Positions 50,787 to 58,745 of a DNA stretch of 64,000 nt are shown here, one piece after another; position 1 is the stretch's first letter; each line of letters starts with the position of its first letter. The stretch covers positions 2,880,895 through 2,944,894 of the forward strand of contig OY969585.1 of the NCBI GenBank assembly GCA_963701295.1. Reading direction: 5' to 3'. The position numbers and the translations under genes were made by a program. The notes beneath the pieces are model-generated. The model saw only the letters and a program-made list of their open reading frames with translations, did no database searches and was not told the DNA's origin. This stretch comes from Ignavibacteriota bacterium. Its GTDB lineage: Bacteria > Bacteroidota > Ignavibacteria > UBA10030.

Positions 50787-50810
50787 GAATGTATAGTTCT
50801 TTGTGCGTAG

Positions 50811-51243
50811 TTAATTAGTACTTCGTTCTTTGTGCCTCGGTCTTTGTGCTTCGTTCTTTGTGCTTAGTTTTTTGTACTTAGTTCTTTTTAATAAGTATTG
50901 GATAAATCCACCAATAAGATTTTTAATATCTTTTGCTTCTGTGAATAATTCATCAAATTCATTTTGAGTAATATATCGGCAATCAACGACAACGTATAAG
51001 AGCGTTTGGACTTCGGAAGTTGATCTGTAAGCATAATTTACAGAAAAGGATAAAACTTTTCCTCGATCCCGAATCAAATCCCTCTGCAATATTTGCCATA
51101 ATAGAAACTGTTGCACGTTGAATCTGTTCTCTTAGTCCAAAATCTTTTGCGAAATCTCCTTTGGCTGTCAAGCCATATATTCGCGATGTCAGCTCACGAG
51201 CCTTTTTCCACGATTCAATATCTTCAAATCGTTCAATCTTCAA
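50811..51243 (-). pseudogene. Four-helix-bundle protein (TIGR02436-like), frameshifted; the 3' end runs into a tandem repeat
   Basis: Frame A gives MKIERFEDIESWKKARELTSRIYGLTAKGDFAKDFGLREQIQRATVSIMANIAEGFD. Frame B gives ...SEVQTLLYVVVDCRYITQNEFDELFTEAKDIKNLIGGFIQYL. Joined, they match the full family. The extended tail ...KERSTN is a translation of the 14-bp repeat. Confidence 0.55.
50832..50900. repeat. Tandem 14-bp repeat, 5 copies (TTCGTTCTTTGTGC and variants)
   Basis: Read directly: ttcgttctttgtgc / ctcggtctttgtgc / ttcgttctttgtgc / ttagttttttgtac / ttagttcttttt. Confidence 0.7.
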
Positions 51244-51287
51244 TTTCTATCATTCTCTTATTTCCAACAGAACTAACCAACTCTGAA

Positions 51288-52328
51288 CTAGTATCCACGT
51301 TTCTTCACTTTTTCAAAATCTGCATGTGCCATCATTTTCGCTAAGTCGCGAAATGTTGTCTTCGGCACCCACCCCAATTTATTTTTGGCTTTTGTTGCAT
51401 CTCCCATAAGCAATTCAACCTCTGTTGGACGATAATATCGAGGATCGACTTCTACGAATGTCTTGCCGTCTTTTTTCGATATTCCTATTTCCTGTTCCTT
51501 CTCGCCTTTCCACACCAAATCCATCTCTAATTCAGTAAACACTGTTTCGATAAATTCTTTCACAGAATGCGCCTCGCCGGTGGCAAGCACAAAATCCTCC
51601 GGTACATTCTGCTGCAGCATACGCCACATCCCTTCACAATATTCCGGCGCATATCCCCAATCGCGTTTTGCGTGAAGATTTCCTATTGTAAGTTTTTCTT
51701 GCAAACCAAGCTTGATTCTTGCAGCCGCAAGCGTAATCTTTCTCGTTACAAAGGTTTCACCGCGGCGGGGAGATTCATGATTAAAGAGGATACCATTACA
51801 GGCATACAGCCCGTATGCTTCACGATAATTGATGATGATCCAGTACCCGTACAGCTTCGCTACACCATACGGACTGCGGGGATAAAATGGCGTTCGCTCT
51901 GTTTGCGGCACTTCCTGCGCTTTGCCGAACAATTCGCTTGTCGAAGCCTGATAAAACCGCGTGCGAACTCCCGTCTCCCGAATCGCATCCAAGAACCGCA
52001 GTGTCCCTACAGCATCCACCTCAGCCGTGTACTCAGGAACCTCAAATGAGACTTTCACATGGCTTTGCGCGGCAAGATTATAGATTTCCTCGGGTTCAAC
52101 TTTTTCGAGGAGACGGTTGAGGTTGCTCGTATCCGTCACATCGCCATAATGCAGGAACATACGATCGCCGTATATTTTTGGATTATTGTAAAGATGATCG
52201 ATACGGCCTGTGTTGAATGAACTGCTGCGTCGAATGATTCCGTGTACTTCATACCCTTTTTCAAGCAAGAGTTCCAAAAGATAGGAACCATCCTGGCCGG
52301 TGATACCGGTAATGAGCGCTTTTTTCAT
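51288..52328 (-). CDS. gmd: GDP-mannose 4,6-dehydratase
   Basis: [35 protein letters not shown]...[10 protein letters not shown]...NHESPRRG. Confidence 0.95.
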
Positions 52329-52335
52329 AAAAATT

Positions 52336-52419
52336 AGTAAAGAGTGAATGGTGAATAGTAAATGGTGAATAGTAAATAGTAAATGGTAAATAGTAAATAG
52401 TGAATAGTAAATAGTGAAT
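52336..52419. repeat. Tandem heptamer array, 12 copies of RGTRAAT
   Basis: agtaaag agtgaat ggtgaat agtaaat ggtgaat agtaaat agtaaat ggtaaat agtaaat agtgaat agtaaat agtgaat. Confidence 0.8.
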
Positions 52420-52450
52420 TGTTCATGATATCTGATTAAAAGTAAAAAAA

Positions 52451-52759
52451 TCAGTCTCGAATAGATTTACTCAAACCGCTGAGTAGTTTCTGAATCTCTA
52501 TCAGATGAACTTCAATCCTTTCGTACTGTGCTTTATCAAAATAATTCATATTCAGGCATATCTCTACCTGCGTATCAATCTCACTAAGAGAACCTTGTGC
52601 AACATTAAGGAAATACAATTTCTCTTTTTTCGATTTTCGTGTAAGTCCTTCTGCTATATTTGAAGGAACTGATACGGCAGCTCGCTTCAACTGCGACTTT
52701 AAACCAAACTCTTCATCCCGTGGAAATGTCTTTGTTTCTTCATAAATCAATGTGACCAA
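52451..52759 (-). CDS. Four-helix-bundle protein (TIGR02436-like); no ATG start, N-terminus uncertain
   Basis: ...[28 protein letters not shown]...[12 protein letters not shown] matches the family. The in-frame upstream sequence codes ...[18 protein letters not shown] (helix 1) but has no ATG/GTG/TTG start there. The ORF track begins at a TTG. Confidence 0.6.
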
Positions 52760-52839
52760 TGCAATACTTTTCTTCCATGCTTCCAGCTTTTTGTGCGCCT
52801 TTCGTTGATCACAATTACTTTCTTTTCTCTGTTCCCTGT

Positions 52840-52874
52840 TTCCTCATTACTCTTCACCGTTTACTCTTTATCGG
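52840..52874. repeat. Short heptamer-periodic repeat (CATTACT CTTCACC GTTTACT CTTTATC GGTTACT) abutting the stop of the epimerase gene
   Basis: Read directly. Pyrimidine-rich on the plus strand. Confidence 0.5.
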
Positions 52875-53840
52875 TTACTTATTTTTCTTCTTTAATTTTA
52901 CTTGCGCTTCCACCCATGGATAGGTCAGTTTAATCCCATCTTCAAGATATACCTTCGCTTTCCAGCCAAGTGAGAATATCCGGTCATTTGAGAAATTACG
53001 CGATTGAACTCCGACCGGGCCCTTGACATGCTTGATAATGATTTTCTTTTCTGCGACCTTCGCGACTGTATTGGCGAGCTCATCAACCGTTACATACTGC
53101 GGGCATCCGATATTCACAGCTCCCCTCAAATCCGAATGCATCAAGAGATAAATACCATCCACCATATCGCTTACGTAGGTATAAGAACGAACTGCTGTGC
53201 CATCTCCCCAGACTTCAATTGTGCCGCCATTTTCGGCTTCCGCCACTTTGCGAGACATTGCAGCGGGAGCTTTTTCCCGTCCGCCCGTCCAGGTGCCTTC
53301 CGGGCCGTAGCAATTTTGAAACCTCGCAATCCTTACTTGCATTCCATACCGGCGCTCATACGCCATGGCAATACGCTCAGAATAAAGTTTCTCCCACCCG
53401 TATTCGTTATCGGGATGCGCAGGAATTGCCTGATCTTCCGACATCTCAGGCTCGCCCGGTTTCATATCGCGATAGACACAGACAGACGAGGAAAAGAAAT
53501 AGCGAGGTACGCCCATTCTTGCCGCGAGATCCGTCATATAAATATTCACAAGCGCGCTATTGTGCATGATCTCGGTTTCAGCGGAATGAATAAAGCCCAT
53601 TCCACCCATATCTGCAGCAAGTTGATATACTTCATCGAATGTACCGCCATCGACCGTAAGCGCTGTACGACAATTGTCTTCAATCCTTAGATCCAGCAAG
53701 AGAAATTCATCCGCCGCCTTCGGCGACCATTCGTGCGGCTTGATATCGACGCTGCGAACCCAGTAGCCTTCTTTTTTGAGTTTCTTTACAAGATGACAGC
53801 CAATAAAACCTCCTGCACCGCATACTAAAGCTTTTTTCAT
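52875..53840 (-). CDS. GDP-mannose 3,5-epimerase-like NAD-dependent epimerase
   Basis: ALVCGAGGFIGCHL plus LAADMGGMGFIHS...FFSSSVCVYRD, which matches the GDP-mannose-3,5-epimerase hallmark (AADMGGMGFIQS...YASSACIYPE) as I remember it. Confidence 0.65.
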   Translation of the reverse strand: MKKALVCGAGGFIGCHLVKKLKKEGYWVRSVDIKPHEWSPKAADEFLLLDLRIEDNCRTALTVDGGTFDEVYQLAADMGGMGFIHSAETEIMHNSALVNIYMTDLAARMGVPRYFFSSSVCVYRDMKPGEPEMSEDQAIPAHPDNEYGWEKLYSERIAMAYERRYGMQVRIARFQNCYGPEGTWTGGREKAPAAMSRKVAEAENGGTIEVWGDGTAVRSYTYVSDMVDGIYLLMHSDLRGAVNIGCPQYVTVDELANTVAKVAEKKIIIKHVKGPVGVQSRNFSNDRIFSLGWKAKVYLEDGIKLTYPWVEAQVKLKKKNK

Positions 53841-53850
53841 GATGTTATCA

Positions 53851-53878
53851 GTTAAGAGTTATGAGTGAATAGTAAATT
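53851..53878. repeat. Short heptamer repeat (AGTTAAG AGTTATG AGTGAAT AGTAAAT)
   Basis: Read directly, upstream of the epimerase-like gene. Confidence 0.4.
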
Positions 53879-54099
53879 TGTTAGATAGTTATTTTGTTCT
53901 TAGTTGTTAGTTAAAGACATATTTTATTAACCGATGGTATGAAGAAAACCCGAATTTTTATATCAGAGTAAGAAATCATTCAATGCACTTCCCCTTTTTC
54001 CCCTTCTTAACTAAGGAGGGGATATGGAGTAGTTGAAATTTTTGATTGGTGCATTTTCTATTGTAACTTCTTGTGCGGTTTTTACCTTTCTACTTGCTA

Positions 54100-54176
54100 A
54101 ATCTTCTTACTTATCACGTATTACCTATCACTCTTCACCGTTCACTCTTCATCGTTTACTCTTCACTCTTTACTGC
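54100..54176. repeat. Heptamer-periodic array of about 11 units; starts within the last codons and stop of ugd
   Basis: The minus strand reads AGTAAAG AGTGAAG AGTAAAC GATGAAG AGTGAAC GGTGAAG AGTGATA GGTAATA CGTGATA AGTAAGA. Confidence 0.7.
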
Positions 54177-55476
54177 TCTTTCTTCCAATTCCATAATAGG
54201 TAAACCCGGCATCCTGTACTTCCTTGGGATCGTAAATATTTCTTCCGTCAAACATAACCGGCGTCTTCATAATGGACTTCATGTAAAGCATATCCGGTTT
54301 ACGGAATTCATTCCATTCCGTCACGACAATCAGTGCGTCTGCATTGTTCAGTGCGGCGTATGCCGTCTTACAAAACTGCACACGAGCACCAAACACTTTC
54401 TTTGCATGAGGCATCGCAACCGGGTCATGGGCTTTTATGGTCACCCCCTCTTTCAATAAGCTTGATATGATCACCATGGAAGGAGCTTCACGAATATCGT
54501 CCGTCTGAGGCTTGAATGCAATTCCCCAAATCGCAACAGTTTTTCCTTTGAGTTTCCCTGCGAAATGTCTTTTAAGCTTTGCGATCAGCATTTTCTTCTG
54601 GTCTTCATTGATACGGTCTACCGCATCGAGAATGCGCAATGGATGCGCATTGTTCGCCGATGTTTTGATCAACGCCTTAACATCTTTTGGGAAACATGAA
54701 CCGCCGTAGCCGATACCTGCAAATAAAAAATTCTTGCCGATGCGCGGGTCGCTGCCAATTCCTTTTCGTATCCATTCGATGTCTGCGCCGACTTTCTCGC
54801 AGAGGTTTGCAAGATCGTTCATAAATGTGATCTTCGTCGCCAGAAATGAATTTGCTGCATACTTTGTCAGCTCTGCGCTTTTTTCATCCATGACGATGAT
54901 GGGATTGCCGGTACGGACAAAAGGTTCGTACAGTTCTCTCATGACTTGTGCGGTTTTCTTATCGCTAGTCCCGATAATGATGCGATCCGGTCTCAAGGAG
55001 TCTTGAAGCGCCGACCCCTCTTTGAAGAATTCCGGATTGGACACGACTTGTACGTCGTATTTCCCGCGGTTCTCAAATATTTGCCTCATTTTTTCTACTG
55101 TGCCGACCGGAACTGTACTTTTGCTGACAACGATTTTTGCTTCATTCAAATAACCTGCTATCCCCTTTGCTACTTCCATCACATGTGTAAGGTCAGCAGA
55201 ACCGTTTTCCGATTGCGGTGTTGGAAGACAGAGAAAAATAACTTGAGACTTTTCGACTGCAAATTTTAAATTCGTCGAAAATACCAAGCGCCCGTCTTTT
55301 ACGTTTCGCTTTACGACCTCATCCAGGCCCGGTTCATAGATCGGAATAATTCCTTTTTTAAGGTTGTCGATCTTTTTTTTGTCGATATCCATGCAAATGA
55401 CGTTGTTGCCTGTGTCTGCAAAACAAGCGCCTTGCACAATGCCTACATAACCGGTTCCAATAATAGATATCTTCAT
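54163..55476 (-). CDS. ugd: UDP-glucose 6-dehydrogenase
   Basis: MKISIIGTGYVGIVQGACFA...GGSCFPKD. Confidence 0.9.
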   Translation of the reverse strand: MKISIIGTGYVGIVQGACFADTGNNVICMDIDKKKIDNLKKGIIPIYEPGLDEVVKRNVKDGRLVFSTNLKFAVEKSQVIFLCLPTPQSENGSADLTHVMEVAKGIAGYLNEAKIVVSKSTVPVGTVEKMRQIFENRGKYDVQVVSNPEFFKEGSALQDSLRPDRIIIGTSDKKTAQVMRELYEPFVRTGNPIIVMDEKSAELTKYAANSFLATKITFMNDLANLCEKVGADIEWIRKGIGSDPRIGKNFLFAGIGYGGSCFPKDVKALIKTSANNAHPLRILDAVDRINEDQKKMLIAKLKRHFAGKLKGKTVAIWGIAFKPQTDDIREAPSMVIISSLLKEGVTIKAHDPVAMPHAKKVFGARVQFCKTAYAALNNADALIVVTEWNEFRKPDMLYMKSIMKTPVMFDGRNIYDPKEVQDAGFTYYGIGRKSSKE

Positions 55477-55484
55477 AATGACTT

Positions 55485-55547
55485 GTAAATAGTTAAGAGT
55501 TTATGTTGAATGGTTAATAGTAAACAGCAAACAGTGAATAGCAATCA
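55485..55547. repeat. Heptamer-periodic array of about 9 units immediately upstream of ugd
   Basis: tgtaaat agttaag agtttat gttgaat ggttaat agtaaac agcaaac agtgaat agcaatc. Confidence 0.6.
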
Positions 55548-55620
55548 TTAAAAAGTGGTCATCAAGGCATACGTTAACACTCCAAAAAAACCATAAGATT
55601 AATAATTTTACGGATTAATT

Positions 55621-55830
55621 GACAGAAAGTAAAGGATGAGAAGACGATAAACAGTGAATAGTGAAAGGTAAAGAGTTAAAATTGAATAGTGAATAGTAAA
55701 GAGTGAAGGGTTAAGAGGAAAGAGTGATGAGAGTTCGTAGTGCGTAGTTAACAGAGTAAAACAACGAAGAGTAAACAGTAAATGGTGATAAGTGATAGGT
55801 GAGATGTGAATTGTGAAGAGATACTCAACA
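55621..55830. repeat. Long purine-rich 7-bp-periodic array (~30 units) immediately downstream of the wbaP-like gene
   Basis: ...agtgaat agtgaaa ggtaaag agttaaa attgaat agtgaat agtaaag agtgaag ggttaag... The 99-aa minus-strand ORF at 55608-55907 is its low-complexity translation. Confidence 0.7.
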
Positions 55831-57532: not shown

Positions 57533-57972
57533 CGACATTGCGAATGACTGCAAGGAGCGCGACAGTCTTACACCCGTCATTGCGAATGTTTTCCAATGAA
57601 GCAATCTCTCTTTTCCCTATGGTATCAGATTGCTTCACCGCTTTCAGCGGTTCGCAATGACAATATGAAAGTCATTGCAAACGACTTCTAGGAGCACGGC
57701 AATCCCTCTTTTCCTCTTTCTCCGTCATTGCGAACAGTTTCATCGTGAAGCAATCTCTCCTTTTCTCAACGTTATCAGATTGCCTCAGTCGTTTCACTCC
57801 TTCGCAATGACATAATAGGACGGTCAGTAGACTACGTGTCATTGTGAGCGACCGTAAAGAGTGCGGCAGTCTCTCTCATTCAGTCATTGCGATCCCGACT
57901 TGTCGGGAGAAGCAATCTCGTTTTTTCCCTTAGTAAGTAGGTTTCTTCGTCTTTCGGGATCTTCGCAATGAC
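57533..57972. repeat. Array A of structured palindromic repeat modules (GTCATTGCGA / TCGCAATGAC half-sites with nested hairpins)
   Basis: Modules at 57577-57660 and 57724-57811, plus partial units. Details are in the findings. Confidence 0.75.
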
Positions 57973-57980
57973 TTGGCTCT

Positions 57981-58298
57981 TTATTCTAATTCAAGAGGAA
58001 GTATTTCTCCATCTTGATACAAATCTTTCCATTCGGGATTCACATTATCAATAAGATCAAGTTTCTTCTGTCTTGAACCTGCTTTGATTTGTTTCTCGCG
58101 TGAAATGGCATCATAAGCAGTTTCAAATATTTCATAATACACGAGTTTGGTAATATTGTACCGACTTGTAAATCCTTTTATCTGTTTCTCTTTGTGTTTC
58201 CATACTCTTCGTGCAAGATCATTTGTCATGCCGGTATACAGTACAGTATTGTTCTTATTGGTCATTATGTATGCAAAGTATTGTCGTTCTTCGTACAT
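57981..58298 (-). CDS. Small GIY-YIG nuclease-family protein
   Basis: 105 aa. FAYIMTNKNNTVLYTGMTNDLARRVWKHK is a GIY-YIG motif variant (YIM...LYTG). Typical small stand-alone form. Confidence 0.8.
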   Translation of the reverse strand: MYEERQYFAYIMTNKNNTVLYTGMTNDLARRVWKHKEKQIKGFTSRYNITKLVYYEIFETAYDAISREKQIKAGSRQKKLDLIDNVNPEWKDLYQDGEILPLELE

Positions 58299-58304
58299 AA
58301 GTTA

Positions 58305-58745
58305 TGTCGTCATTGCACTCTCACACGTCATTGCGAACGTAGTGAAGCAATCCTTCTTCTATTCAGTCACTGCGAACATTTTCATCGTGAAGCAATCTCT
58401 CCTTTTCTCGACGTTATCAGATTGCTTCGTCACCTGCCCCTTCGGGGCTTCGTTCCTCGCAATGACAATATGAAAGTCATTGCGAGTGACTGCAAGAAGC
58501 GCGACAGTCTTACACCCGTCATTGCGAACGCAGTGAAGCAATCCTTCTTCTATTCAGTCATTGCGAACAGTTTCCTCGTGAAGCAATCTCTCCTTTTCTC
58601 AACGTTATCAGATTGCTTCACCGCTTTCAGCGGTTCGCAATGACATAATAGGATGGTCAGCAGACTACGTGTCATTGCGAGTCCCAACTAAGCGGGACGA
58701 AGCAATCCCGTTTTTTCTTTCTTAAGAGAATAGCGTCGCTGTTTC
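58305..58745. repeat. Array B of the same structured palindromic repeat modules
   Basis: Modules at 58366-58466 and 58557-58642, plus partial units. A 40-bp sub-module (GTCATTGCGAACGYAGTGAAGCAATCCTTCTTCTATTCA) occurs twice. Confidence 0.75.

Follow-up and report, generated by a model that had tools for sequence, protein, structure and literature searches.

The window analysed, a stretch of 64 kb of DNA, contains a block of nucleotide-sugar genes whose mRNA sense is the minus strand. The gene calls of an earlier note on this DNA proved right, namely Bac_transf (the wbaP-like gene), UDPG dehydrogenase (ugd), NAD epimerase, GDP-mannose dehydratase (gmd), an fcl-like epimerase (fcl) and two PF05635 genes, termed here four-helix-bundle (4HB) genes 1 and 2. 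Seven 7/14-bp-periodic arrays were found, all within 50796–55830 and none elsewhere in the 64 kb (Table 1). In an autocorrelation scan (35-nt windows, ≥68% match), lags 7, 14 and 21 gave 130, 181 and 79 windows, compared with at most 2 for each other lag from 3 to 20, and every lag-7 and lag-14 match lay inside 50808–55820. TRF reported imperfect period-7/14 arrays, with 70–88% matches, at 50796–50887, 52335–52419, 52847–52879, 54128–54174 and 55653–55731. A degenerate pattern search (RGTRAAN x3, up to 3 mismatches) returned 50 matches versus 1.96 ± 1.48 in shuffles; 49 of the 50 fell in six blocks, indicating that the short arrays at 52840–52874 and 53851–53878 belong to the same family as the others. 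The array at 50796–50906 (array G) has a different, 14-nt unit consisting of two heptads of the nAAGnAC type, GCACAAAGAACGAA in mRNA sense. With small boundary changes, these methods recovered the seven heptad arrays that the earlier note had listed, in both orientations (RGTRAAN blocks on the + and − strands) and, as it had stated, with nothing similar elsewhere in the window. Its array at 55621–55830 is real, but its count of about 30 units there was generous, because array A is degenerate in the middle.

Table 1. Positions of arrays, spacers and 4HB genes in the window, in order of transcription, followed by the blocks of the degenerate pattern search.
Feature	Position	Strand	Identified by
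Array A, Y-type heptads (STTYACY, mRNA sense), ~210 nt	55621..55830	-	TRF, autocorrelation, pattern search
Non-repetitive leader between arrays A and B	55553..55620	-	conservation in relatives
Array B, Y-type heptads	55485..55552	-	autocorrelation, pattern search
Array C, R-type heptads (RGTRAAS)	54100..54181	-	TRF, pattern search
ORF-less loop between arms C and D, ~220 nt	53879..54099	-	HMM, motif comparison
Array D, short Y-type arm, 4 units	53850..53878	-	pattern search
Array E, R-type arm upstream of 4HB gene 2	52825..52879	-	TRF, pattern search
4HB gene 2 (PF05635 / TIGR02436)	52451..52810	-	profile search, alignment to L083
Array F, Y-type arm downstream of 4HB gene 2, 12 units	52329..52425	-	TRF, autocorrelation, pattern search
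Short upstream arm of 4HB gene 1 (TAGTTCA GAGTTGG TTAGTTC TGTTGG)	51244..51287	-	
4HB gene 1, frameshifted PF05635	50907..51243	-	profile search
Array G, downstream arm of 4HB gene 1	50796..50906	-	TRF, autocorrelation
RGTRAAN x3 block	52329-52425	+	pattern search
RGTRAAN x3 block	52825-52879	-	pattern search
RGTRAAN x3 block	53850-53876	+	pattern search
RGTRAAN x3 block	54120-54181	-	pattern search
RGTRAAN x3 block	55505-55552	+	pattern search
RGTRAAN x3 block	55639-55817	+	pattern search

Read in mRNA sense, the purine-rich (R) arrays C and E come after stop codons, and the pyrimidine-rich (Y) arrays B, D and F end 8, 9 and 7 nt before the ATG of ugd, the epimerase gene and gmd, respectively; array G likewise ends 9 nt before the ATG of fcl. 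The Y arrays are nearly G-free (1 G in the 97 nt of array F, 12 in the 210 nt of array A) and unstructured. The final codons of ugd and its stop lie within array C, in keeping with the earlier note's placing of an array start in the ugd stop region, and the array contains stops in all three frames (5, 3 and 4 per frame). Array E starts at the stop codon of the epimerase gene and, together with array F, brackets 4HB gene 2; array A begins on the stop codon of the wbaP-like gene. The leader between arrays A and B holds a promoter-like pair, TTTACT-N17-TAAAAT (promoter-like match at 55633->55605), which is conserved in the related loci L082, L083 and L084 and in the array-free L085, and probably represents the native promoter or 5′ leader of ugd. 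Neither A nor B has an R array as partner in its own spacer, and none lies upstream of A; the best complementary partner of A is array C (duplex of −79.8 versus −43.4 ± 4.0 kcal/mol in shuffles). Arrays C and D pair in the MFE and centroid folds, with a duplex of −29.2 to −29.4 versus −16.7 ± 3.3 in shuffles. The loop between them yielded no 4HB remnant by HMM, and the motif at its 3′ end, AAGAACAAAATAACTATCTAACAAAT, recurs in L083 beside a Y array of another spacer. Arrays E and F also pair in the MFE and centroid folds, although their sense duplex was no better than shuffles (−25.8 versus −23.4 ± 2.7 kcal/mol; antisense, −43.8). The short upstream arm of 4HB gene 1 is partly complementary to array G. 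Whole-spacer folds in the window had weak z-scores (−1.1 to −2.1).

Both 4HB copies in the window are disabled, gene 1 by a frameshift and gene 2 by loss of its start. The fragments of gene 1 lie at 51243–50983 (profile positions 1–64) and 51116–50811 (positions 62–105), the second reading frame continuing into array G; the gene is a divergent paralogue. Gene 2 is 86% identical at the nucleotide level, over 366 nt, to an intact gene in L083; a 2-nt insertion has put a TGA behind its ancestral TTG start, leaving helix 1 with no in-frame start ahead of it.

The same operon was compared among relatives. L085 (ugd 82%) has it with spacers of 85, 37 and 1 nt, with no arrays and no 4HB gene in 21 kb. 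L082 (93%) carries an R array, a loop and a Y array without an ORF in two spacers, and in a third only the first ~40 nt of 4HB gene 1 are left. In L083 (90%), the orthologue of 4HB gene 2 lies upstream of the epimerase gene, versus downstream in the window, and an NTase/NTase_sub_bind pair is also located between arrays; L084 has a ParE toxin gene near an array. By this comparison of sequences, the operon is shown to exist in empty (L085), arms-only (L082) and 4HB-filled versions. Array lengths differ among the window, L082, L083 and L084. Another sample yielded a contig of 99.9% identity that spans arrays A–D; it differed by 3 mismatches and one 1-nt gap, with identical array lengths and no 7-nt indel.

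To place the locus in a wider setting, 80 loci with 4HB homologues (41–56% identity) were surveyed; they are the best-scoring of more than 580 matches and not a random sample, and come from Acidobacteriota, Bacteroidota, Planctomycetota, Xanthomonadales, Shewanella, Chloroflexota, Clostridia and CPR. In these best 80, 105 segments had a lag of 7, and no other lag from 4 to 13 gave more than 22; 64 of the 105 lay within 200 nt of the 4HB ORF, where their density was ~20-fold higher, which bears out the co-occurrence of TIGR02436 genes with such repeats that the earlier note had proposed to check. In 45 of 77 loci from this best-scoring set, a strong lag-7 array lay no more than 100 nt away from the ORF; about 40% of the set lacked a strong lag-7 array, which counts against the interpretation given below, and some had 8-nt periods. 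Neighbours were mostly co-directional with the 4HB gene in the best-scoring set (upstream 68/74, downstream 52/71), at median gaps of 56 and 43 nt. Pfam-verified junctions included accB/accC, dnaK/dnaJ, groES/groEL, E1alpha/E1beta, rmlB/rmlA, fcl/gmd, ilvN/ilvC and gyrB/gyrA. Nucleotide-sugar operons accounted for three of the ten junctions with both neighbours checked, and a fourth locus (L057) has gmd upstream. The earlier idea of arrays restricted to glycan loci is thereby refuted as a general rule, the same architecture occurring in acc, dnaK/J, groES/EL, pdh, ilv and gyr operons. In L018, L028 and L038, where the 4HB gene lies between accB and accC, a GGGAATC-type array precedes it, with a complementary C-rich arm downstream of the gene in L018 and L038; an arms-only hairpin also occurs in L017.

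The heptad units differ between loci (GTGAGCA, CGGGAAT, GTCATTA, TTCTCAG and others), while the 4HB signature R...SVPSNIAEG is invariant. Among the 77 loci from the best 80, at least 3 inverted 7-mers were shared between the arms in 49 (versus 7% of permuted pairs), the upstream/downstream duplex outdid shuffles by 10 kcal/mol or more in 42, and the upstream arm was the purine-richer in 61; consensus units matched inverted at ≥6/7 positions in 13 of 22 loci from the set (versus 6% permuted). As far as can be judged by sequence, these data show that the two arms of one locus are locus-specific reverse complements which co-vary between loci. Sense and antisense arm duplexes were equally stable (39 versus 38 of the 77), and thus there is no G-U signature for selection at the RNA rather than the DNA level.

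Taken together, we consider it probable (about 0.7) that IVS-like, hairpin-bounded 4HB (S23p, PF05635/TIGR02436) cassettes are decaying in operon junctions and that the arrays are their arms or, in two spacers, their relics. The earlier suggestion of a link to the interleaved 4HB genes is thus upheld in a stronger and more general form, the arrays being paired arms or remains of cassettes. These cassettes are small and selfish-looking, and their layout recurs at operon junctions in many bacterial phyla; heptad arms around a 4HB gene at operon junctions were not found described in the literature searched. Along transcription, a cassette would open with a purine-rich array of heptads, starting on or at the stop that ends the upstream gene and itself carrying stops in all frames; a small ORF would follow, and then a complementary, G-poor pyrimidine-rich array whose end lies 7–9 nt ahead of the next ATG. 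Arms of this tandem build could pair in many registers, and they could lengthen or shorten by slippage with complementarity kept. By analogy with the rRNA IVS of Coxiella and Leptospira, the transcribed arms may form a long imperfect duplex cut by RNase III; the host RNA would thus be freed of the insert by folding or cutting, so that a cassette between essential co-transcribed genes would be tolerated, and the stability and translation of the flanking cistrons would be uncoupled as a side effect. The elements in this window are old and decaying. Since their stems are weak and their ORFs dead, any present-day effect is probably limited to the long, unstructured, G-poor leaders before ugd, the epimerase gene, gmd and fcl. 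For arrays A and B and the C–D spacer, the name of cassette relic is an inference, since A and B have no R partner and the C–D loop has no detectable 4HB remnant, and an order of arrays first and gene later is equally compatible there.

That order is the core of an alternative that we hold to be unlikely, in which replication slippage, the known source of an excess of 7-nt long simple-sequence repeats (LSSRs), first creates heptad arrays in operon spacers at the DNA level, and small selfish genes (4HB, toxin–antitoxin pairs) are inserted into and shuffled between them; since the arrays of one genome share a unit, they would act as recombination hot spots, and the arms would work through homology or hairpins of the DNA rather than through RNA. 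Arm pairing without sense/antisense asymmetry agrees with this, as do the arms-only hairpins (L082, L017 and the C/D spacer of the window), the other cargo between or near arrays (L083, L084), the orthologous 4HB gene in different spacers of L083 and the window, and the 70–75 convergent (inverted) GGGAATC pairs of Xanthomonas (PMC4692102). Left unexplained, however, are the inverted rather than direct arms around one gene and the conserved R-upstream/Y-downstream polarity (61 of the 77 loci from the best 80). Moreover, the spacer of L082 that has lost its arrays still contains a piece of a 4HB gene, which shows gene loss rather than gain, and array G, beside the divergent paralogue 4HB gene 1, is built of a unit of its own, as though arms moved together with their gene.

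Protein binding seems still less probable as an explanation. Each heptad, on mRNA or DNA, would be a candidate site for an oligomeric factor, such as the pentameric 4HB protein, S1 or another single-strand binder on the Y arrays, or Rho (rut-like sites), and such binding would tune the next cistron in its translation or polarity. The G-poor, unstructured Y arrays ending just before four start codons suit such a role; TAACTGA heptamers just upstream of starts were proposed as sites for post-transcriptional regulators (PMC4679880), deletion of heptamer repeats altered reporter output in Nostoc/E. coli constructs (bioRxiv 10.1101/2022.06.06.494920), and the homologue XCC0516, whose deposited structure (2GSC) contains five chains, is described as a homopentameric toroid (PMC4990558). 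The completely different units at different loci, set against an invariant 4HB signature, nevertheless argue against sequence-specific recognition by the 4HB protein, and the arrays persist although both 4HB genes in the window are disabled. Phase variation, in which slipped-strand gain or loss of units would switch the sugar-precursor genes or adjust their expression, as the earlier note had envisaged, is very improbable. Heptamer number does vary among Coxiella strains (2 or 3), Cyanothece strains differ in 7-nt steps, and array lengths vary among the window and its relatives; here, however, the imperfect units lie in untranslated spacers, outside the ORFs and the promoter-like hexamer pair, arrays A–D were unchanged in the contig from another sample, and whole-heptad changes upstream of the fixed 7–9-nt gap would leave reading frame and start-codon spacing unaltered.

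Compared with known elements, the cassettes favoured here resemble REP/BIME and MITE-like elements in being imperfect inverted repeats in operon spacers, dispersed and in some cases ORF-less. Those elements can serve as RNA stability or processing elements between cistrons; they are single palindromes or TIR-bounded, with a dedicated transposase (RAYT or IS), whereas the cassettes have tandem heptads for arms and a 4HB gene as cargo, and no transposase is known for them. The 4HB proteins share a homologous four-helix-bundle fold with bAvd of diversity-generating retroelements (PF22296, 30.8 bits; NF033474, 38.9 bits), but both scores are below the curated cut-offs (40 and 80 bits), and the window has no template/variable repeat pair of the kind found there. 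Avd is a pentamer acting on nucleic acid together with a reverse transcriptase. Heptanucleotide repeats are reportedly known from cyanobacteria as STRR (Mazel et al., 1990). Further examples are TAACTGA repeats in Beggiatoaceae, Cyanobacteria and Bacteroidetes (PMC4679880), the GGGAATC repeats of Xanthomonas (PMC4692102) and the excess of 7-nt LSSRs for which PMC4679880 cites Mrazek et al. 2007. Like these LSSRs, the present arrays consist of head-to-tail 7-nt units, are intergenic and often immediately upstream of start codons, and have genome-specific units and a patchy phylogenetic distribution. In the portions of this literature (STRR, TAACTGA, GGGAATC, LSSR) covered here, we found no mention of a 4HB/S23p gene; they discuss G-quadruplexes, translational regulators and polymerase slippage, whereas here the arrays read as paired cassette arms.

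The closest characterised system is the IVS in the 23S rRNA of Coxiella burnetii, in which an S23p ORF described as “undergoing reductive evolution” is preceded by a strain-dependent number of tandem GACAGAT heptamers, and a 28-bp terminal inverted repeat forms a stem that RNase III cuts at the start of the first repeat (PMC4990558). As in the IVS of Coxiella, and also of Leptospira, a decay-prone PF05635/TIGR02436 ORF lies in the loop with heptamers directly upstream and complementary termini form a stem, and the IVS element is regarded as selfish. The IVS lies inside helix 45 of 23S rRNA, whereas the cassettes sit between protein-coding operon genes; RNase III cleavage within the repeat or stem is experimental for the IVS and predicted for the mRNA-borne cassettes; and the cassette arms comprise 4 to ~30 units, compared with 3–4 units within the 28-bp stem of the IVS.

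The seven 7-nt-periodic repeat arrays (A–G) that the earlier note had described in the spacers of the nucleotide-sugar gene block were all found to be real and non-random, because sliding autocorrelation, TRF, and a degenerate-pattern search were in agreement and array G was recognized as a double heptad. Over the whole 64 kb, strong self-similarity was restricted to lags 7, 14, and 21, and all lag-7 and lag-14 matches fell within 50808-55820, with concordant TRF results. The pattern RGTRAAN x3 matched 50 times, compared with 1.96 ± 1.48 times in shuffled sequences, and 49 of the 50 matches lay in six blocks. The arrays are limited to 5 kb of the 64-kb window, and nothing comparable was found outside the block, as had been claimed. 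They consist of head-to-tail 7-nt units in intergenic positions and are longer than expected by chance, as are heptanucleotide long simple sequence repeats. DNA curvature and a CRISPR array were both dropped on anatomy alone, the latter requiring repeats of 23–50 nt with unique spacers of similar length, while the units here are contiguous 7-mers without spacers. No enrichment was observed in a promoter and terminator scan (8 promoter-like sites vs. 10.7 expected; 3 terminator-like sites vs. 4.7); on these counts, the arrays were ruled out as terminators and as sigma-70 promoters. An Rfam scan of the window revealed no family at the gathering threshold and no rRNA; the sole sub-threshold match, inside 4HB (four-helix-bundle) gene 2, was judged to be due to chance.

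Genes and repeat arrays of the block in window coordinates (R-type, purine-rich, and Y-type, pyrimidine-rich, in mRNA sense)
Feature	Position	Strand	Remarks
wbaP-like sugar transferase	57270-55825	minus	
UDP-glucose dehydrogenase (ugd)	55476-54163	minus	
NAD-dependent epimerase	53840-52875	minus	
4HB gene 2 (PF05635)	about 52810-52451	minus	
GDP-mannose 4,6-dehydratase (gmd)	52328-51288	minus	
4HB gene 1 (PF05635)	51243-50907	minus	split by frameshift
fcl-like epimerase	50786-49860	minus	
Array A	55830-55621	minus	Y-type, STTYACY units, nearly G-free
Array B	55552-55485	minus	Y-type, STTYACY units, nearly G-free
Array C	54181-54100	minus	R-type, RGTRAAS units
Array D	53878-53850	minus	Y-type, STTYACY units, nearly G-free
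Array E	52879-52825	minus	R-type, RGTRAAS units
Array F	52425-52329	minus	Y-type, STTYACY units, nearly G-free
Array G	50906-50796	minus	14-nt double-heptad unit, unlike the other six arrays

The arrays were placed regularly with respect to the genes. R-type arrays C and E start on or at a stop codon and contain stops in all three frames, with the final ugd codons and its TAA falling within array C. Arrays B, D, and F end 7–9 nt 5' of the ATG of ugd, the epimerase, and gmd, respectively, and array G likewise ends 7–9 nt 5' of the fcl ATG; Shine-Dalgarno sequences are rarely used in this organism. Arrays E and F flank 4HB gene 2, arrays C and D enclose a 220-nt loop without an ORF, and 4HB gene 1 is enclosed by array G and a short complementary stretch (51287-51244). 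Arrays A and B share one spacer with a non-repetitive segment between them. A promoter-like pair, TTTACT-N17-TAAAAT, is found at 55633-55605 on the minus strand (within 55553-55640); the pair and the next ~70 nt are conserved in three relatives (L082–L084), the hexamers being retained also in an array-free fourth (L085). Judging from this conservation, it probably represents the native promoter or leader of ugd, relative to which array A is upstream and array B would fall in the 5' UTR. Directly upstream of the wbaP-like gene, a GIY-YIG ORF (57981-58298, PF01541) is located inside 5–6 copies of a dispersed repeat of ~100–150 nt (57536-58690) rich in GTCATTGCGA/TCGCAATGAC palindromes, which looks like a second, unrelated element of selfish character.

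The 4HB genes belong to the PF05635/TIGR02436 family (S23p, or “23S rRNA intervening-sequence” proteins), a family that is very large (20,420 clusters at 50% identity, E <= 1e-3) and has no assigned function. Gene 2 scored 126.5 bits against PF05635 (cut-off 33.8) and 117.1 bits against TIGR02436 (cut-off 24), the fragments of gene 1 scored 67.7 and 31.0 bits in the same profile search, and the orthologue of gene 2 in the relative L083 matched PDB 2GSC (XCC0516) with E = 2.4e-26. Neither copy retains an intact translatable ORF of ~115–125 aa. In gene 1, the reading frame shifts near profile position 64–70; gene 2 reads TTG TGA TCA AC... where L083 reads TTG ATT AAC, and this 2-nt insertion destroys the start, with no in-frame start before helix 1. 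Because of these lesions, both copies look non-functional as sequenced; sequencing error may be their cause. A six-frame HMM search detected no more 4HB remnants in the C–D loop or the A–B gap. A diversity-generating retroelement was rejected on its Avd and repeat features: both the Avd equivalog NF033474 (38.9 vs. a cut-off of 80 bits) and PF22296 (30.8 vs. 40 bits) scored below threshold, and the window has no template/variable repeat pair, there being no long direct repeat pairs besides the arrays and the GIY-YIG repeats. Several family representatives (P0125, P0158, P0159, P0183, P0186, P0220, P0237, and P0266) are 270–630 aa long with an N-terminal 4HB domain; given where the 4HB gene and its arms sit, these long forms probably arose by read-through into the host gene downstream or from faulty gene calling across the two.

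Co-occurrence of 4HB (TIGR02436) genes with such repeats, which the earlier note had proposed to check, was examined in the best 80 of more than 580 matches to gene 2 (41–56% identity; not a random sample), fetched from one-genome-per-species contigs with heuristically set ORF boundaries, of which 77 were usable. The loci span Acidobacteriota, Bacteroidota, Planctomycetota, Xanthomonadales, Shewanella, Chloroflexota, Clostridia, CPR, and others. The dominant periodicity was lag 7, with 105 segments compared with at most 22 at any other lag from 4 to 13, and 64 of the 105 were situated within 200 nt of the 4HB ORF, a density 20-fold above the remainder of the loci, although this ratio overstates the effect because the remainder is mostly coding. 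A strong array was observed within 100 nt on at least one side in 45 of 77 loci, and on both sides in 18. The co-occurrence was thus confirmed, and the suggestion that the arrays are linked to the interleaved 4HB genes was supported both by this density and by arrays E and F. Reading of the flanks revealed a common plan, an upstream array followed by its reverse complement downstream of the 4HB ORF, as in AGTGAGC.../...GCTTACT (L012), GAGTGAG.../...CTCACTC (L057), and TAGTCAT.../...AGTGACT (L070). At least three inverted 7-mers were common to both flanks in 49/77 loci vs. 7% of permuted flank pairs, and inverted consensus units matched at six or more of seven positions in 13 of the 22 loci with strong two-sided arrays (6% when permuted). 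Because the unit itself differs from locus to locus, it is the period and the complementarity that are conserved. The upstream arm was the more purine-rich in 61/77 loci, the same polarity as around gene 2.

In three of these loci (L018, L028, and L038), the 4HB gene separates accB from accC and is preceded by a GGGAATC-type array; L018 and L038 also have a complementary C-rich arm on its downstream side. Window gene 1 was related no more closely to its 4HB counterparts at loci with G-like units (L016 and L077) than to other family members, and tracking of the 4HB phylogeny by unit type was not borne out by this comparison. An Ignavibacteriaceae MAG (L017, 1024-1924) has AGTGAAT/AGTAAAT units, as in the window, directly after a wbaP-like gene; next come an insert of ~700 nt, in which no convincing ORF was recognized, and then a Y array that precedes the following gene. 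The 4HB gene of this MAG has arms of 8-nt period.

The neighbours of the 4HB genes were predominantly co-directional (upstream 68/74, downstream 52/71), with median gaps of 56 and 43 nt, and Pfam identified them as accB/accC (Xanthomonas), dnaK/dnaJ, groES/groEL, pyruvate-dehydrogenase E1alpha/E1beta, rmlB/rmlA, fcl/gmd, ilvN/ilvC, and gyrB/gyrA; in L057, gmd is upstream. Since the neighbours are co-directional and functionally varied, the element is an operon-junction insert rather than a glycan-locus feature, and confinement of the arrays to glycan loci is contradicted by the acc, dnaK/J, groES/EL, pdh, ilv, and gyr operons, although nucleotide-sugar operons do recur. No rRNA context was detected in 20 loci scanned with Rfam, and the window flanks are protein-coding genes, not a 23S rRNA helix. 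One 4HB gene with its arms was observed directly downstream of a tmRNA gene (L061, 2590-2938), and a tRNA gene is adjoined or flanked by heptamer arrays in two Pyrinomonadaceae loci (L049, 564-645; L059, 444-525).

Look-ups of the window's ugd, gmd, and epimerase as exact proteins gave no match, and relatives of the window locus were reached by a homology search with the window ugd. By homology, the source organism is probably an Ignavibacteriales-like member of the FCB group. In the comparison recommended in the earlier note, empty, arms-only, and filled versions of the locus were found, and no change in the length of arrays A–D was seen in a near-identical contig. In L085 (ugd 82% identical), the wbaP-ugd-epimerase-gmd-fcl order is kept with spacers of 167, 85, 37, and 1 nt, and no array or 4HB gene was found within 21 kb; these spacers are empty sites. 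In L082 (93%), with the gene order of the window and no 4HB genes, the ugd-epimerase and epimerase-gmd spacers each contain an R array, a 55–90-nt loop, and a Y array, and in the 84-nt gmd-fcl spacer ~40 nt from the start of 4HB gene 1 survive (95% identity), a remnant indicating that the gene was deleted there. In L083 (90%), the orthologue of gene 2 (86% nucleotide identity over 366 nt) is flanked by long R and Y arrays. It follows an inserted NTase/NTase_sub_bind pair and precedes the epimerase, while gene 2 of the window is downstream of the epimerase; thus, one cassette occupies different junctions in related genomes. L081, from another sample, was 99.909% identical to the window over 4384 nt with one 1-nt gap, and arrays A–D were of equal length in this single comparison. 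Other selfish-type small genes also adjoin arrays, namely, the MNT-HEPN-like NTase/NTase_sub_bind pair (L083, 6127-6827) and a ParE toxin gene (L084, 5351-5780). A 23–26-nt motif (AAGAACAAAATAACTATYTAACAAAT) occurs just 5' of a Y array in the window (53876-53901) and in L083 (4242-4264), with a diverged copy in the epimerase-gmd spacer of L082. Each of the three related genomes carries it in a different spacer, as though a hairpin element lacking an ORF had been duplicated. When metagenomes were scanned for the loop motif AACAAAATAACTATYTAACAAAT, the L083 contig alone was recovered, so there was no sign of the ORF-less hairpin as a dispersed MITE.

In predicted minimum-free-energy and centroid folds, E pairs with F and C with D. 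The sense duplex of E and F equalled shuffled sequences and that of C and D was ~4 sd better, and the strongest predicted pair in the window was A (55621-55830) with C (54100-54181), flanking ugd, at −79.8 vs. −43.4 ± 4.0 kcal/mol in shuffles. The polarity of A and C around ugd is opposite to that around the 4HB genes. Across the loci, a G-U asymmetry test of RNA-level selection revealed no difference between sense and antisense arm duplexes, so the complementarity could be made and kept at the DNA level.

On sequence comparison, the arrays most likely derive from cassettes resembling rRNA intervening sequences (IVSs), as their arms or, in two spacers, as their remains. Each cassette would be a 4HB gene or loop between an R-type upstream and a Y-type downstream arm, placed in an mRNA spacer; the window would hold an old, decaying instance of such S23p elements in operon junctions. 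Tandem heptads would allow the arms to pair in any register, so that either arm may grow or shrink without loss of the stem. The stops of the R arm would end the upstream ORF wherever the element lands, and the Y arm would give the next gene an unstructured, G-poor leader, compatible with the rare use of Shine-Dalgarno sequences. By analogy with the rRNA element, the arms might be processed by RNase III in mRNA, which the folds in the window hint at faintly.

Slipped-strand phase variation of the sugar-precursor genes, as proposed from the first reading, is disfavored: the tracts lie in spacers and touch stop codons only, the promoter-like pair is outside the arrays, the units are imperfect, and copy-number variation was absent from arrays A–D in the single strain L081. 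An origin of the arrays before the genes, as landing pads into which small selfish genes recombined, would fit the toxin-antitoxin inserts and the hairpins made of arms alone, but it would leave the inverted arms, their conserved polarity, and the 4HB remnant in L082 unexplained, and we consider it improbable. It is unlikely that the arrays are binding sites for a putative partner such as the 4HB pentamer, S1, or Rho, sequence-specific recognition by the 4HB protein being opposed by the diversity of the units against an invariant protein motif. Beyond the cassette reading itself, a wider one can be drawn, which we regard as a long shot when taken jointly. Here, 4HB/S23p genes with inverted heptad-array arms would form one phylum-spanning mobile operon-junction class with the rRNA IVS as its best-known special case; the unexplained heptamer repeats (STRR, TAACTGA, and GGGAATC) would largely be arms and fossils of cassettes; an Avd-like pentamer would recognize the 7-nt-periodic arms, with five subunits on successive heptads; and the protein would act in RNA-level excision, or in reverse-transcriptase copying of the hairpin RNA into highly transcribed sites.

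Mazel et al. reportedly noted tandem heptanucleotide repeats in bacterial genomes in 1990. Such repeats have so far been described by family (STRR, TAACTGA, and GGGAATC), without agreed origin or function. Passages of PMC4679880 present heptamer arrays as TAACTGA repeats, passages of a Nostoc preprint (bioRxiv 10.1101/2022.06.06.494920) describe regulatory “heptamer repeats”, and GGGAATC repeats form 70–75 convergent pairs in Xanthomonas (PMC4692102). The S23p/4HB gene is mentioned neither in these passages nor, by term search, in the text of the GGGAATC paper, and our literature search returned no paper linking heptamer repeats to S23p/4HB genes outside the Coxiella IVS, an absence that is not proof. 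“23S rRNA IVP” appears in a figure legend of a terascale CRISPR-association screen (PMC10910872), among the proteins or domains associated there with CRISPR or CRISPR-like repeats; heptad arrays flanking 4HB genes might be what that screen scored. The window and the 80 related loci join heptamer repeats to the PF05635/TIGR02436 family, and both to the RNase III-processed rRNA IVS, so that two separate questions merge into a single model open to test, in which a cassette bounded by hairpin arms colonizes essential-operon junctions (groESL, dnaKJ, accBC, and gyrBA). In practice, the arrays break assemblies, produce false gene fusions and pseudo-ORFs, and may pass for CRISPR-like repeats; processing at the arms, should it occur, would alter the relative amounts of the operon products.

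The rRNA IVS is the one case studied by experiment. In Coxiella burnetii, the 23S rRNA IVS is a 428-nt element whose complementary termini form a 28-bp stem and whose loop encodes an S23p protein of the PF05635/TIGR02436 family (PMC4990558). Its 5' region contains 3–4 tandem GACAGAT heptamers, the number varying by strain, RNase III cuts at the start of the first repeat, and the ORF is described as “undergoing reductive evolution” (PMC4990558). Tandem heptameric repeats likewise adjoin the 4HB ORF in the window and at the related loci. It is because the window cassettes resemble this IVS in their sequence-level features, with a candidate stem and a different host molecule (mRNA spacers vs. 23S rRNA), that we read the arrays as IVS-like arms.
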